Below are positions 27,724-34,430 of a DNA stretch of 64,000 nt, piece by piece; position 1 is the stretch's first letter; the number at the start of each line of letters is the position of its first letter. Under the pieces are notes generated by a model. That model was not told where the DNA came from. It did not search any database and saw only the letters and a program-made list of their open reading frames with translations. The DNA comes from Candidatus Nomurabacteria bacterium (GTDB taxonomy: Bacteria > Patescibacteriota > Minisyncoccia > Phycocordibacterales > UBA918), in assembly GCA_023898585.1 (NCBI GenBank), contig CP060229.1:462763-526762 (forward strand). The letters run 5' to 3'. The position numbers were made by a program, and so were the translations under genes.

Positions 27724-29949
27724 ATTACCATCTTTACCCGAGGTAATAGTGATAATTTAATCTAAATCTGTTAGTCTCCAATGACCAACTTACTTATCCG
27801 GAACTGGTGCTTGACTTTAATTTCTTTTTCTATAGAATAGCCATCACGTATTTATGAGTTTTGAGAAAAGAACACTTTCGTAGCAAGAAATTTCGCAGAT
27901 TGCGATTTAACTTGCCGCGAGATTGCGGTTTTTTCTTTCAAAATTCAAAGGGATGCGGGTTGTTTGACAATTCCCATGACCGAGCGTCACGCGACCAAAT
28001 GTGCGAACACTTTGTGTTCATTATTTGGTTGCATGACCGAGCGAATGGGGATTGTATGGCTTGACCATACAATCGCATATTCATTAAGGACAGGTTGATA
28101 AGACCTGTCCCAAAAAGTCCTACGGCGACATTGTTTTCTTGTGAGCGAATGCGAACTAGAAAACGAGAAGTGCCTTGTGGTAAATCGACGTCGTCGTAGG
28201 CAACCCCCGCATAAAGCTAGAATCGACGCTAGCGCGGGGGAGTAGGTAAAAAAGTGTGTCGGGTTAAGAGTTTGTCCAATCGGACAGGTCTTTTCGTCCT
28301 CGACACGCTAAACACAAAGATCGTAGATTTTCCTAAGGAAAAATCTACGATCAGTCCGGAGTATGTATCTCCGGACAACACTCAAAAAATTGTGCAGCGG
28401 TGCACAGCGTTTTTGTGAGGAGCATGTCATCAGCGAAATCTGGCGACGGACCTTACTTTCGAGCGAGCGAGTGAAATGGAAGTAGCCATCAGGCCATTTA
28501 CATTTCCGAGCGAGCGAAGAAAGCAAGGAACGTTATACAGAAACGCAGTTGATGTATAACGTTCCTTACAGGAACAAAGGGTGTATGGTGGATGCCTTGG
28601 CTTCAAGAAGCGATGAAGGACGTGATATGGCTGCGATAAGTTTCGGGGAGGTGCCAAATAACCTTTGATCCGGAAATGTCCCAATGGGGAAACCCTACTA
28701 CTTTCAGTAGTAACCCTTGTATGAGGGGGCGTACCTAGGGAAGTGAAACATCTCAGTACCTAGAGGAATAGAAAGCAATAGACGGAAATTTCTTTTTGAG
28801 CGGATGCTTTGCATCAGCTCATTGAGCATGGTGCTTTGCGCCATTACGCTCAAGAAGAAGGTTCTTGCGATTCCCGGAGTAGCGGCGAGCGAAAGGGGAA
28901 TAGCCCAAATCCTGCACCTTTTAAGGTGCAGGAGGTTGTAGGGCGGAATCTGCATTTAGTTGCAGAGAGTTACAAAACAGATATATAGGAAAACACGTTG
29001 GGAAGCGTGACCCCAGTAGGTAATAGTCCTGTATTCGAAATGTATCTGACTCTCTTGGTTCCGTTCCTGAGTAGCGCGGGACATGAATAGCCCGTGTGAA
29101 TCCACCAGTACTAACTGGTAAGGCTAAATATTCTTGAAGACCGATAGTGAACAAGTACCGTGAGGGAAAGGTGAAAAGAACCCCGGAGAGGGGAGTGAAA
29201 TAGATCTGAAACCATACATCTACAAGGAGTCGGACCCAGCTCCAGATTCGTAATCTGAATCAACGGGCTTTATAAGATCAACCGCAGTTGTTTTATAGAG
29301 CAAAGTTGTGAAAATCGTGAATCTGGAGCTGGGGACGGCGTGCCTATTGAAGAATGAGCCGGCGAGTGTATATCTATGCTTTGTCTAAGTGGCAATCCCA
29401 CGGAGGCACAGTGAAAGCGAGCGTGAATAGCGCGAATATAGCGTAGGTATACGACCCGAAGCGGGAAGAGCTTGCCATGAGCAGGGTGAAGCGACTGTAA
29501 TAGGTCGTGGAGGCCCGAACCGGTTGGCCGTACAAAACCATCGGATGACTTGTGGTAAGGAGTGAAAAGCTAATCGATTTCCGTAATAGCTGGTTCTCTC
29601 CGAAACAGCTTTAGGGTTGGCGTCGTGTGTTTCCTACGGGGGTAGAGCACTGGAAGGTCAAAATAGGGGGAAACTTCGTTTGACCTATCAAACTCCGAAT
29701 ACCGTTAGGCCACAGCACGGCAGTTAGACTACGGGGGAGAAGCTCCGTTGGTCAAAAGGGAAACAGCCCAGATCGCCAGTTAAGGTCCCAAAATATATGC
29801 TCAGTGCAAAATGAGGAGGTGAGGATTCACAAACAGTGAGGAGGTTGGCTTAGAAGCAGCCATCCTTTAAAGATAGCGTAATAGCTCACTCATCGAGAGT
29901 CCTTGCGCCGAAAATGATCGGGGCTCAAGCATATTACCGAAACTGCGGA

Positions 29950-30332
29950 TTCGTAGGCTTCATTTAGGAAAAGTTTATGTCCAAGGGGACAGTTTGATGG
30001 TCGTCAGAGTCCGCTCGCGCAGCGGAACAGCGTACGACCACAGCTGCCCACCAAGCATGCAAAAACAGTAAAGATGTCTCCTGAGGCGAGCGCCACCTGG
30101 CGCGTTAGTGACGGGCACTGCGCAGACTGTTAACATTGCATACTTTTCGTCGGGAGTGTTCGAAAGAACCCCCTTGGACTCCCGTTCTTTTACGTCGAGA
30201 CAATTTTGGTCCCCGGTAGCTTAGTTGGCAGAGTAGCTGAATGCAAATCAGTGAACACTGGTTCGACTACAGTCCGGGGAACCAAAATTGTCTCACGTAC
30301 CATTTCAAACAAGCGTTTGAATCCTAAATGAA
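29950..30332 (+). other. intervening sequence (about 345 nt) inserted in the apical loop of 23S helix 45, closed by a 20-bp stem (UUCGUAGGCUUCAUUUAGGA / UCCUAAAUGAAGCCUACGAG)
   Basis: Flanks align to E. coli H45 (GCGGCAGCGACGC..GCGUUGUUGGGUAGGGGAGCGU); the interior has no 23S homology. Confidence 0.7.
30210..30284 (+). ncRNA. tRNA-like cloverleaf (anticodon-loop GCA, encoded ACCA 3' end) embedded inside the helix-45 insertion, carried on a 21-bp extended stem
   Basis: UCCCCGG acceptor/CCGGGGA, D-arm GCUU..AGUUGGCAGAGU, anticodon stem GCUGA/UCAGU with loop AUGCAAA, T-loop UUCGACU but G53-A61 mismatch; flanked by GAGACAAUUUUGG / CCAAAAUUGUCUC. Confidence 0.45.
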
Positions 30333-30865
30333 GCCTACGAGTGGTAGGAGAGCGTCCATCTCTGCGATGAATCCAAGGCGGGAGCCGCGGTGGAGCGAGG
30401 TGGAGTGAGAATGCCGGCACAAGTAACCGCAAGGCAGGTGAGAACCCTGCCCGCCGAAATACCAAGGTTTCCTTTGCGATGGTGATCATCGAAGGGTTAG
30501 TCGGTCCTAAGGGAATCCCGAATGGGGGACCCGATGGAGAGCAGGTTAATATTCCTGCACACTGTTATGTTCCTATGGAGGGACGGAGCGTTGTACCCAA
30601 AGCTTCTTATTGGATTGGAGCTGGAGCTATGAGCGTGTTACTTAGGTAAATCCGGGTAGCAATAGCGCGAGTAGGGTCTGAATGTGAGCCTTCGGGTGAG
30701 CAAATAAGGGGAGCACGCTTCCGAGAAAAACTTCGTTTGGGTTAAGCATAATGGTTCCGTACCGCAAACCGACACAGGTGGTAGAGTCGAGAAGACTAAG
30801 GCGAACGAGTGAGAGGTCCTCAAGGAACTCGGCAAAATAGCGGCCGTAACTTCGGGATAAGGCCC

Positions 30866-31174
30866 GCCAGCCCTAGATTTGGGGTATGATAGTTGAATGC
30901 ACGCTGTGTACGTGATTCAAAACAATGAGACTAAAGAAGTCTATATTGGTCGTACTGCCAATCTCAAAACAAGACTGGTTGAACACAATTCGCGCGGTAA
31001 GAAAAGCACCACGCGCAATAGTGGCAGCTGGAAGTATATTTATGTTGAACTTTTTCGAAGTACTGATGATGCTATTGAGCGCGAAAAGAAGCTCAAAGCG
31101 CACGGTAGTGGTAAACAAAAGTTGATGTCACGACTTCGAAAAAGCTTGTTTTGAGCCCCAAATCTAGGGCTGGC
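30866..31174 (+). other. 23S helix (E. coli about 1710-1750 region) expanded by a 271-nt loop that consists almost exactly of a GIY-YIG ORF
   Basis: Stem GCCAGCCCUAGAUUUGGGG / CCCCAAAUCUAGGGCUGGC; the ORF starts 12 nt after the stem and stops 1 nt before it. Confidence 0.65.
30897..31154 (+). CDS. small GIY-YIG nuclease-domain protein encoded inside 23S rRNA
   Basis: VYVIQNNETKEVYIGRTANLKTRLVEHN (GIY..YIG, Arg, Glu); 85 aa; paralogue at 54231-54500. Confidence 0.6.
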   Translation: MHAVYVIQNNETKEVYIGRTANLKTRLVEHNSRGKKSTTRNSGSWKYIYVELFRSTDDAIEREKKLKAHGSGKQKLMSRLRKSLF

Positions 31175-33024: not shown

Positions 33025-33150
33025 TGAGGTCCCAAGGGTTTGGCTGTTCGCCAATTAAAAAGATACGCGAGCTGGGTTTAGACCGTCGTGAGACAGGTTG
33101 GTCTCCTATCTACTGCAGGCGTCGATTCTTGAGGAGAGTTGTCCGTAGTA

Positions 33151-33938
33151 AGTAATTGCTACTTCAAGGAGAGATCCTTGATGACAATACGGCTTATAAC
33201 GGTGAAGTCTAAGTCAAATCTGGTTTTAGAGAATGATTGACCAAGGTCCAGTGTCAATCAAACTCGCTTGAGGACCGGAATCTTGATATGATAATACCGT
33301 GGGAAGTCGATCCGACACAGATTTAGCATACATTGCGGGTTTCCTTGATGGAGACGGAAGCATTATGTTGCAGGTAAAGTCGCGTAGCGATACAAATCGC
33401 GGAGTGCGCTTTATGGCAACTATCTGCCTCTATCAAGATACTCGTCACGAGAGTCCACTGTTGTGGATGCGTGAAATCTTTGGTATCGGGTACATATCAC
33501 ACCGTAAGGATAGTATTACCGAACTGAGAGTTAATGGTTTTGCTTCGGTAAGAAGAATACTCATTTTGCTCCAGCCTTACATTAGGTTCAAACAAGTACA
33601 AGTAACAGCATTGTTGAATGCTTGCGAAATACTTGGTGGCCGCAGGGTTGGTGATCTGAATGAAGTCCAGCTGAAAGAGTTGGTTGATCTGGTTTTTTTG
33701 ATCAGGGAAAACAACTATAAAAGCAGGCAGACGCTTACCAAAGAAACATTGCTACTGCGTTTGGGTTTGACCCCGTAACGACTTGCACTGAAATATGTGC
33801 AGACCGCATGTTGATGAATCATTTCTTTGAAAATGACTGACCATGCAGGTAACATGCCGTCGCCCTCGCCCTTTGCCTTTCAAGGTGCAGGGACGGGTGA
33901 AGATATAGTCTGTGCTCCTAGAAATAGGGGAATCCACG
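33151..33938 (+). other. about 788-nt group I-type intron inserted within the sarcin-ricin loop (…UCCGUAGUA | CGAGAGGACC…), carrying a LAGLIDADG ORF
   Basis: Joined exons give UUGAGGAGAGUUGUCCGUAGUACGAGAGGACCCGG, which aligns to E. coli CUGAGGGGGGCUGCUCCUAGUACGAGAGGACCGG; the intron ends in G. Confidence 0.6.
33299..33778 (+). CDS. LAGLIDADG homing endonuclease (single-motif), intron-encoded
   Basis: DLAYIAGFLDGDGSIML motif; 159 aa. Confidence 0.75.
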   Translation: MGSRSDTDLAYIAGFLDGDGSIMLQVKSRSDTNRGVRFMATICLYQDTRHESPLLWMREIFGIGYISHRKDSITELRVNGFASVRRILILLQPYIRFKQVQVTALLNACEILGGRRVGDLNEVQLKELVDLVFLIRENNYKSRQTLTKETLLLRLGLTP

Positions 33939-34430
33939 ACGAGAGGACCCGGATGAACGAACCTCTGGTCTATCGGCTGTCACGCCAGTGGCATTGCCGA
34001 GTAGCTATGTTCGGAACGGATAACCGCTGAAAGCATCTAAGCGGGAAGCCGCCTCCAAGATAAGGAATCATTAAGTCCCCAGAGAGATGATCTGGTTGAT
34101 AGGCACTAGGTAGAAGTACAGCAATGTATGGAGCCGAGGTGTACTAATAGGACGTAGTTTCCTGTAAGGAACGTTGTACATCAACTGAAACTTACATAAT
34201 TGTCGTACTGCCGCGTTGTGCATCGGTAAAATAATTCTCTCTGGACGTCTAGTCCCGTTCGAATTATTTTCCTCGCACGCCTTGCATTACAAACAATTTT
34301 GAGAATTTTCAGCCGGTTGTATAACTTTTTACAAACGTTGACACCGTTGCACAATTTTTTGAGAAGAGGTGTTTTACCTACAAAAACAAACCAACTTACC
34401 ACTTTGTCTTCAACATAAGGGAGACAAGTA

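Follow-up and report, generated by a model that had tools for sequence, protein, structure and literature searches.

Insertion sequences in the rRNA genes of the candidate phyla radiation (CPR) were reported by Brown et al. 2015 (as cited in PMC11270868), and a survey of 348 CPR 23S rRNA genes by Tsurumaki et al. 2024 (PMC11270868) shows that 82% of them carry inserts of at least 100 bp, with up to 16 inserts per gene and a total insert length of 1.3 kb on average and 5.75 kb at most. In that survey, 45% of the inserts match the group I intron model, open reading frames (ORFs) of the LAGLIDADG_1 family cluster at positions 1917, 1931, 1952, 2593, 2604 and 2657, GIY-YIG ORFs are found exclusively in non-intron inserts, and short inserts in helices 25 and 45 are read as RNase III-type intervening sequences (IVSs); the description of Patescibacterium danicum also calls such inserts "a common occurrence" (PMC11809585). 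Here, we analyze the 23S rRNA gene carried by a 64,000-nucleotide stretch of contig CP060229.1 (the window, at its full length), which, with all its inserts, is 5.6 kb long. Its mosaic is a typical example of the class already documented for CPR bacteria, to which it adds nothing conceptually. We consider it highly likely that this is a CPR 23S rRNA gene with the phylum-typical mosaic of selfish or semi-selfish inserts, in which the introns would be spliced, the hairpins would be cleaved, and a tRNA-like cargo would not serve in decoding.

The extent of the gene follows from an Rfam LSU_rRNA_bacteria match that begins at 28565 (1896.5 bits), from a collinear alignment with Escherichia coli rrlH (L001; L-numbers denote the compared loci and contigs), in which E. 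coli 10–2760 corresponds to window positions 28574–34042, and from helix 1, in which the 5′ end of the gene, CUUACAGGAA, pairs with UUUCCUGUAAG at ~34159–34170 (the partner strand as a whole lying at ~34159–34172). The end of the cmscan match at 32289 is an artefact of a model forced across large introns, and was replaced by the mapping anchored on E. coli. An earlier reading of the letters alone (the sequence-only reading) had placed a gene of ~5.6 kb at 28547–34177, which these three lines of evidence bear out with only slightly different ends. The gene and the features found within it are the following:

28565–34172, plus strand: 23S rRNA gene, all inserts included, 5.6 kb (Rfam LSU_rRNA_bacteria, E. 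coli rrlH alignment and helix 1).
28783–28868, plus strand: hairpin expansion of ~86 nt in domain I, at E. coli 227/232 (88-nt insert in cmscan; fold).
29235–29333, plus strand: IVS-like hairpin in helix 25, +87 nt, with a perfect 16-bp stem (cmscan alignment; fold).
29951–30340, plus strand: helix-45 IVS, 390 nt in place of a 22-nt helix, closed by a perfect 19-bp stem, TCGTAGGCTTCATTTAGGA / TCCTAAATGAAGCCTACGA (read from the sequence).
30210–30284, plus strand: tRNA-like element of 75 nt, a cloverleaf with A73-CCA (Rfam tRNA, Aragorn and a CPR tRNA covariance model).
30866–31174, plus strand: replacement of helix 63, a perfect 20-bp stem, GCCAGCCCTAGATTTGGGGT / GCCCCAAATCTAGGGCTGGC, with an ORF-filled loop (read from the sequence).
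30897–31154, plus strand: ORF of 85 aa comprising a GIY-YIG catalytic domain only (Pfam PF01541).
31367–31599, plus strand: predicted ORF-less intron of 233 nt after U1931 (site L1931; boundaries, weak Rfam Intron_gpI match, homologues at the same site).
32200–33026, plus strand: predicted intron of 827 nt in the terminal loop of helix 91, after E. coli 2533 (excision restores the L094 allele).
32389–32883, plus strand: single-motif LAGLIDADG ORF of the 2533 intron, 164 aa from a GTG (Pfam LAGLIDADG_1, 34.3 bits).
33150–33938, plus strand: predicted group I intron of 789 nt in the sarcin-ricin loop, between U2656 and A2657 (empty alleles in relatives, covariation).
33299–33778, plus strand: single-motif LAGLIDADG ORF of the sarcin-ricin-loop (2656) intron, 159 aa (Pfam LAGLIDADG_1, 40.3 bits).

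No second 23S copy lies within the 64-kb window, and a single rRNA gene set is the CPR norm (PMC11270868). The closest loci are all CPR metagenome-assembled genomes (MAGs), the exons of the window are 90–92% identical to those of L006–L008, and the gene order L10, L7/L12, MscS-like gene, 23S, and then VWA and FtsW is common to the window and to L091, L093, L094 and L095, four contigs that were retrieved via the GIY-YIG protein. The host thus appears to be an uncultured Patescibacteria (CPR) bacterium. An organelle origin was ruled out, as all relatives and the gene neighborhood are those of CPR bacteria.

Relative to E. coli, the gene shows eight length excesses of at least 60 nt. Three are small: 86 nt at E. 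coli 227/232, 87 nt belonging to helix 25 and ~61 nt located between E. coli 277 and 422. The other five are the 372 additional nt of helix 45, the 265 additional nt of helix 63, and the 233, 827 and 789 nt that follow U1931, 2533 and U2656, respectively. The inventory is that of three group I-type introns, as predicted below, and four hairpin insertions, and removing the five larger inserts in silico leaves ~3.07 kb of 23S sequence (the segments 1386 + 526 + 192 + 600 + 123 + 234 adding up to ~3.06 kb). When we mapped the insert sites of ~35 full-length CPR 23S genes, of which the longest reaches 8.1 kb, inserts at helix 45, helix 63, 1931, 2533 and 2657 were found to recur across many lineages. 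The five inserts counted by the sequence-only reading are all present, and its typing of them holds in each case (helix-45 insert with its 19-bp stem, ORF-bearing hairpin of helix 63, L1931 intron and two LAGLIDADG introns), as does its estimate of ~3.1 kb of exon sequence. Its count passed over the smaller hairpins of ~86 and 87 nt and the ~61 extra nt, however, so that at least seven insertions of 60 nt or more stand against its five; it described the ORF-filled loop of helix 63 correctly but did not name the ORF as GIY-YIG, it found the helix-45 IVS but overlooked the tRNA-like element inside it, and it took a mosaic that is indeed real without recognizing it as the documented norm for CPR bacteria.

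The boundaries of the three introns were read from the sequence, and the resulting spliced junctions were compared with the uninterrupted alleles of relatives. All three introns end in G (the ωG; positions 31599, 33026 and 33938). Excision at 2533 yields a junction identical to the uninterrupted L094 allele at 73/73 positions, and 97–99% identical to those of L091, L093 and L006–L008, while uninterrupted alleles of the 2656 junction are present in L091, L093, L094 and L095; against the uninterrupted L094 allele, the spliced junctions match at 73/73 and 77/80 positions. The 1931 junction is uninterrupted only in L095, and homologues of this intron occupy the same site in nearly all close relatives (L006–L008, L086 and L091–L094). 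Its 5′ exon ends in U and the intron in G, and Rfam Intron_gpI aligns with its R and S/J8-7 core, GAAGAUAGAGUCC, at 16.8 bits (E = 0.037, in a 266-nt search).

The structural evidence is most extensive for the 2656 intron, for which 59 homologous introns were compared. U–1 precedes the intron in 57/59 of these (the other two are offsets of the regular expression), and the terminal G is present in 59/59. RNAalifold and covariation analysis of 30 ORF-deleted members gives an invariant P1 (GUAGU/GCUAC) with a U·G wobble at the cleavage site in 30/30, a P2 that is capped by a GNRA loop and shows double changes in all of its pairs (7/7), two covarying pairs in a long-range P3, and covariation in P8 and P9. 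This intron contains the J8/7-P7 motif GAAGAUAUAGUC, the J8/7-P7 core motifs found in the introns being GAAGAUAUAGUC, GAAGAUAGAGUC and GAUGGAAUAGUC, and it scores 20.9 bits with Rfam Intron_gpI. In the case of the 2533 intron, orthologues are present in L031, L032, L037, L055, L062, L075 and L095/96, with a terminal G in 8/8 introns inspected. P1 covaries in this family (GGAGC/GCUCU in the window, GGAGA/UCUCU at five loci and GAAGU/GCUUU in L032), as does its GAAA-capped P2. Because of their boundaries, P1 and ωG, core motifs, covariation and the published record, rather than the Rfam model, we assign the three inserts to group I-type introns, on what can be judged from the sequences compared. 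Group II introns were considered and ruled out, as there are no reverse transcriptase ORFs and no matching Rfam models.

Both the 2533 and the 2656 introns are absent from the syntenic loci L091, L093 and L094, and L093 and L094 carry an L2500 intron that the window lacks. Such a patchy distribution of the 2533 and 2656 introns would be consistent with homing and loss. The three introns interrupt rRNA that is indispensable and highly conserved: the 1931 intron lies beside helix 69, the 2533 intron within the loop of helix 91 and the 2656 intron within the sarcin-ricin loop. They would therefore have to be spliced out, with ligation of the exons.

Both LAGLIDADG ORFs score above the Pfam LAGLIDADG_1 cutoff of 23.1 bits, and their motifs, LAYVAGLVDGDGAI and LAYIAGFLDGDGSI, retain the acidic residue. 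The ORF of the 2533 intron has full-length orthologues at 50–64% identity in eight loci, and is annotated as a 164-aa gene in L218. For the ORF of the 2656 intron, gene callers take a downstream start that gives a 137-aa product; it has 160 confirmed relatives in GTDB genomes, and the 80 loci that were retrieved (80/80) all carry it at the same 23S site, almost all of them CPR MAGs, including Saccharibacteria, Paceibacterota and Kaiserbacteria. It shows dN/dS (nonsynonymous to synonymous substitution rate) ratios of 0.15–0.21 against six orthologues, and it sits inside an intron at a conserved target, with empty sites in L091, L093, L094 and L095. Taking into account this family membership and the patchy distribution of the introns, we propose that the two proteins, as LAGLIDADG enzymes of the I-CreI type, would cut intron-less alleles and thereby spread the introns by homing. 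Site-specific cleavage has been shown for a different CPR enzyme, I-ShaI, in the 1931 region (PMC11270868). Separately, we note that three loci with the CPR-type sarcin-ricin-loop intron (L021, L044 and L078) are on contigs labelled as Gammaproteobacteria or Mycoplasmatales MAGs, which are probably mis-binned CPR rRNA contigs.

The four hairpin insertions (E. coli ~230, helix 25, helix 45 and helix 63) are all located at helix tips, and all form perfect duplexes of 13–20 bp, with fold z-scores from –3.6 to –12.2. The domain I hairpin has a 13-bp stem (z = –3.6), and extra sequence near E. coli 227/232 is present in relatives as well. Helix 25, a classical IVS site (PMC2801512; PMC11270868), carries a hairpin that folds at –59.2 kcal mol–1 (z = –9.3); at the same helix, L095 (GCA_007117575.1, 4288–4647), which has nine 23S inserts in total, carries a 23S_rRNA_IVP (S23p-type) ORF within a 471-nt insert. 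The helix-45 IVS folds at –180.4 kcal mol–1 (z = –12.2), and its sequence recurs unchanged in two independent contigs, L087 and L218. L086, which is 100% identical to the window in the helix-63 insert and in the 1931 intron, has the native 22-nt helix 45 and no IVS. As this near-identical strain has the short native helix, the helix-45 IVS would be a recent gain or loss. L093 has a 354-nt helix-45 IVS with a homologous closing stem that carries compensatory changes, and with a different interior. An S23p-type ORF was ruled out in the helix-45 IVS of the window, which contains no ORF, and the first 270 nt of the IVS have no Rfam match at E ≤ 10; searched against plasmids, the IVS has no match, and against phages only its tRNA part matches.

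The loop of the helix-63 hairpin corresponds almost exactly to the 85-aa ORF (258 nt), whose residues 1–69 match Pfam GIY-YIG (PF01541) at 62.2 bits (E = 5.9e-17). There are 21 homologues of 82–116 aa (most of them 85 aa), at 67–100% identity, and dN/dS against L091, L093 and L094 is 0.10–0.14, with dS of 0.9–1.6. Given these low ratios, the ORF is apparently a real gene under constraint. The insert as a whole is kept in L086 and L091–L097 at 77–100% nucleotide identity, vertically inherited within the clade, and has no intron features. Its stem is identical in L091 and L093, and only its outer end differs in L094 (21 bp) and L095 (where the change is compensated), a constancy that holds despite the saturation of synonymous sites in the ORFs of these relatives (dS 1.2–1.5); in the distant L010 and L015, the stem is compensated to perfect 21-bp and 17-bp duplexes, respectively. 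A GIY-YIG ORF of the same kind is also found in L062, sited in helix 25. The window itself holds, at 54231–54500, a free-standing GIY-YIG paralogue of 85–89 aa, 42% identical to the rRNA-embedded copy and directly followed, at 54511–54570, by a 60-nt near-perfect palindrome (93% self-complementary).

What becomes of these hairpins in the transcript can be read in two ways. In the reading we prefer, RNase III-type cleavage would take place in the duplexes of at least the helix-45, helix-63 and helix-25 elements, with no religation, leaving a 23S rRNA that is fragmented yet functional; the 85-aa GIY-YIG protein would then be made from the freed helix-63 loop, acting as an mRNA-like RNA. The rnc gene is retained in CPR bacteria (PMC12641178), and the standard processing model, which the sequence-only reading also outlined (RNase III-type excision of hairpins, or their retention, together with splicing of the introns), is probably the right one. 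Alternatively, all four hairpins could be retained as surface expansion segments, such that only the three introns are removed. The hairpins do lie at helix tips, where the large subunit is variable and exposed to solvent, every close relative has the two small ones, and the helix-63 hairpin is conserved vertically across the clade with an invariant stem, as a structural element would be. However, RNase III characteristically cuts perfect duplexes of 16–20 bp, cleaved IVSs classically occur in helices 25 and 45 (PMC2801512, PMC4990558, PMC11270868), a translated 258-nt ORF locked into ribosomes is hard to square with a dN/dS of ~0.1, and the helix-45 IVS is present or absent between close strains, as expected of dispensable, excised elements. 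We therefore regard retention of all four hairpins as unlikely.

Within the helix-45 IVS, the tRNA-like element scores 50.5 bits with Rfam tRNA (gathering score 29) and 49.4 bits with a covariance model (CM) that we built from 17 genuine CPR tRNAs, and is labelled tRNA-Cys(GCA) by Aragorn. Pairing between its leader and trailer lengthens the acceptor stem by ~11–13 bp. With relaxed thresholds or in intron mode, Aragorn returned dozens of false tRNAs in native rRNA, including a recurrent "tRNA-Arg ccg", and these were discarded in favor of the CM. The element is 78–79% identical to phage tRNA-Asn genes, with which, in the alignment, it shares the U1–A72 acceptor pair, the D arm and the T arm. 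It departs from them in its anticodon (GCA for GUU), its discriminator base (A for G73) and position 61, where A replaces C, so that the G53–C61 pair gives way to a G53·A61 mismatch. Its sequence derives from tRNA-Asn, and the tRNA-Cys label, which is based on the anticodon only, was rejected on account of the tRNA-Asn-like body. Recognition by cysteinyl-tRNA synthetase (CysRS) goes with U73 and a GCA anticodon, and recognition by asparaginyl-tRNA synthetase (AsnRS) with G73 and GUU. The element carries neither set, and, as A73 and GCA on a tRNA-Asn body miss both, it is probably charged by neither enzyme.

It might nevertheless be a genuine, expressed tRNA that reads Cys codons, transcribed at a high level together with the rRNA and then freed through RNase III, RNase P and 3′ trimming. 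The strength of the Rfam, Aragorn and CM calls, together with seven acceptor pairs, U8, A14, G18G19, U33, the T-loop UUCGA and an encoded CCA, is what such a tRNA would show, and tRNAs are normal constituents of rRNA operons, with relatives having them between 23S and 5S. Against this, A73 stands in place of the U73 that CysRS requires by the general rule, the G53–C61 pair is broken, the body is that of a tRNA-Asn minus its GUU anticodon and G73, the corresponding modules of L068, L105 and L031 have other anticodon loops and are themselves defective (the anticodon loop of L068 has 8 nt, the T loop of L105 has 9 nt and G18G19 is missing, and L031 has 32 nt inserted in its D loop), and the near-identical strain L086 dispenses with the element altogether. 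A functional tRNA-Cys is thus improbable, and we favor the reading in which the element would be the non-decoding cargo of a modular hairpin element. The two genuine tRNA genes of the window, tRNA-Pro(GGG) (22711–22782) and tRNA-Ile(GAU) (62977–63051), have no encoded CCA, unlike the tRNA-like element.

This modular reading draws on tRNA-like elements found in other CPR 23S genes. A CM scan of 90 loci gave tRNA-like matches inside 23S in only two others, L031 and L068, and the CM revealed no further tRNA-like element inside 23S in 41 additional partial loci. In L031 (a Paceibacterota MAG; 4600–4960), a cloverleaf resembling tRNA-Thr(GGU) lies in the helix-45 IVS (55.7 bits, A73-CCA); its D loop is enlarged by a 32-nt hairpin, it has a G3·U70 pair, and the arms of the L031 IVS are unrelated to those of the window. 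In L068 (9205–9788), an ORF-less group I intron at L2593, which we take to be the I-CreI site, bears a long hairpin tipped by a tRNA-like element (47.5 bits, U73-CCA) with an 8-nt anticodon loop, CUUUCAAA; the arms of this hairpin nearly match those of the window IVS (GCTTCATTGAGGA vs GCTTCATTTAGGA), and the same small hairpin precedes the 3′ arm. The ORF-less L2593 intron of L105 (~565–1055, minus strand) has the same arms (GCTTCATTGAGGAAAAGTTTGTAC vs GCTTCATTTAGGAAAAGTTTATGT in the window) and a tRNA-like element (38 bits, A73-CCA) with the anticodon loop CUGUCCA and a 9-nt T loop, and helix 45 of L052 has the arms and the small hairpin with no cloverleaf. In metagenomes, a scan with a pattern on the D arm, anticodon loop and T arm of the tRNA-like element found nothing, and one with the arm motif returned 120 loci, almost all of them chance 17-mer matches; the only ones with 23S sequence are L105 and L113, and only L105 has the element.

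Taking these loci jointly, we tentatively propose that the helix-45 IVS belongs to a previously undescribed modular hairpin family of CPR rRNA genes, a reading that is plausible but that we hold to be somewhat more doubtful than secure. Its architecture, given with the same reserve, could comprise arms in which GCTTCATTKAGGA... pairs with ...TCCTMAATGAAGC, a small 3′ hairpin and, in some copies, a tRNA-shaped cargo invariably ending in N73-CCA. The arms may further occupy two host sites, namely helix 45 (with the tRNA-like cargo in the window, another cargo in L093 and an "empty" version in L052) and a peripheral loop of the L2593 intron (L068 and L105), a distribution that we likewise put forward with some hesitation. 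Across the four tRNA-like elements, 28/28 acceptor pairs and all anticodon-stem pairs are canonical despite differing sequences, and neither the anticodon loops (GCA, GUC, UUCA, GGU) nor the elbow nucleotides are conserved. That the stems stay fully paired while their sequences differ and the anticodon loops vary suggests selection on tRNA shape and the CCA end rather than on decoding, a lead drawn from four elements. The cargo could act as a handle for RNase P or the CCA-adding enzyme, by which the RNA, once excised, is sent to processing or decay, or it could be the footprint of an RNA-mediated capture of mature tRNAs. If CCA-ending cargo is indeed a recurrent part of rRNA insertion elements, rRNA processing would be linked to RNase P and the CCA-adding enzyme; the alternative, RNA-mediated tRNA capture, would be placed in a phylum whose RNA biology has hardly been approached by experiment. 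Full-text literature searches found no published description of tRNA-like elements in rRNA IVSs, and the word tRNA has 0 occurrences in the text of PMC11270868. The tRNA-like module in the helix-45 insertion is the sole detail of this gene for which we found no report, and is therefore potentially new.

The mosaic structure is not an assembly artefact, since independent contigs from other samples reproduce the same arrangement: L218 matches window 29517–50524 at 99.85%, L087 matches 29844–31183 at 99.7%, and L088–L090, L219 and L220 are 99.99–100% identical over their own lengths. That the gene is a decaying pseudogene, or a mis-assembly joining different organisms, is accordingly very improbable, for although rRNA regions are notorious for chimeric assembly, L219 starts exactly at the intron/exon junction at 33027, and L086 is 88% identical to the window upstream of helix 45 (including 29572–29754) and 97% downstream, the independent assemblies of several samples agree at 99.7–100%, the exons are fully conserved, with spliced junctions that match L094, the flanking synteny is that of the relatives, and CPR genomes normally have one rRNA gene set (PMC11270868).

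Two further observations concern these contigs. All 32 differences between the window and L218 fall within 29572–29754, a 180-nt stretch of 23S domain II, and the other ~21 kb are identical; judging from this comparison, the stretch would be a site of microdiversity or a recombination hot spot just upstream of helix 45. In L219, a contig from another sample, the first position (33027) is the first exon base past the 2533 intron, a hint that alleles with and without the intron occur side by side in that sample and interrupt its assembly graph.

We note that several points weigh against our preferred reading of a mosaic of spliced introns and cleaved hairpins. The Rfam group I scores of the 1931 and 2656 introns (16.8 and 20.9 bits) are far below the gathering score of 50, the 2533 intron has no Intron_gpI match at E ≤ 1, and none of the intron homologues in seven relatives reaches the Intron_gpI gathering score. 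An internal guide sequence or P1 could not be made out in the 1931 intron. A U·G wobble is near-universal at the cleavage site of group I introns. In the 2533 family, however, the pair at this position is C–G in the window, A–U in five relatives and U·G only in L032, and a C–G or A–U pair is unusual for a group I intron. The 85-aa GIY-YIG protein (69 aa of it catalytic) has no DNA-binding or target-recognition domain, and, for lack of the former, falls outside the definition of a homing endonuclease; the literature also doubts homing by such GIY-YIG proteins. For the claim of the sequence-only reading that homing endonuclease genes are active in this lineage, the support is indirect: the ORFs are unbroken and evolve under purifying selection, and close relatives differ in which introns they carry. 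Finally, the ~86-nt hairpin, the helix-25 hairpin and the ~61 nt at 277/422 may be either cleaved or retained as expansion segments, and intron splicing, 23S fragmentation and translation of the ORFs are all deduced.

As for the remaining rRNA genes of the window, Rfam places the 5S rRNA at 35377–35484 and an unlinked 16S rRNA at 60416–62009, on the same strand and 25 kb downstream of the 5S. The 16S is ~1594 nt long, ~60 nt beyond the length of the model, and is followed after ~970 nt by tRNA-Ile(GAU) (region 60416–63051). The 23S–5S spacer (34173–35376) is 1.2 kb long, with no tRNA and no similarity to any relative, and relatives have one to three tRNAs shortly upstream of the 5S (tRNA-Trp in L007; Gly, Val and Pro in L093). 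Within this spacer, a 94-aa ORF (34431–34715) is a gene call in other assemblies, and has no Pfam match.

The value of the locus lies in splice boundaries that are exact and borne out by empty sites, in purifying selection shown for rRNA-embedded GIY-YIG and LAGLIDADG genes, and in a near-isogenic pair of strains of which only one has the helix-45 IVS. The locus is also an example of why surveys by polymerase chain reaction miss CPR rRNA genes and why assemblies break at them. Of all its parts, only the tRNA-like module could raise a question that is new.

When compared with known systems, the gene agrees with the published CPR 23S genes in its LAGLIDADG_1 introns and the sites 1931 and 2657, in a GIY-YIG ORF that resides in a non-intron insert, and in its helix-25 and helix-45 IVSs, and its total insert length of ~2.5–2.7 kb is inside the published CPR range. 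The text of PMC11270868 makes no explicit mention of position 2533, which may correspond to one of the sites 23IS9–11, which that text leaves unnamed; the tRNA-like module of the helix-45 IVS is, unlike the other elements, not described there.

Outside the CPR, conserved positions of the 23S gene, 1931 among them, also bear group I introns in Thermotoga (L1931) and, of the I-CreI/I-CeuI type, in chloroplasts, and I-CreI is a homodimeric, single-motif LAGLIDADG homing endonuclease of ~160 aa. Unlike in those systems, the 1931 intron of the window has no ORF, and the ORF-bearing introns are in the helix-91 loop and the sarcin-ricin loop, two intron sites that are described only from CPR bacteria. 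Coxiella burnetii reportedly has group I introns in domain IV of its 23S rRNA gene, one of them encoding a LAGLIDADG protein. The Thermotoga L1931 introns were described by Nesbo & Doolittle 2003 (as cited in PMC11809585), and the Coxiella gene resembles the present one in combining group I introns with an RNase III-processed helix-45 IVS (428 nt, PMC4990558). The introns of Coxiella are located at 1917 and 1951, however, and those of the window at 1931, 2533 and 2656, and the Coxiella IVS carries an S23p (23S_rRNA_IVP) ORF, whereas that of the window is ORF-less and contains the tRNA-like element. In the classical IVSs that RNase III excises in Salmonella, Campylobacter and Leptospira, among others, helices 25 and 45 are likewise replaced by near-perfect hairpins that are sporadic among strains (PMC2801512). 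Unlike these, the window has, in addition, a helix-63 hairpin with a conserved protein gene in its loop, and a helix-45 element that contains a cloverleaf.

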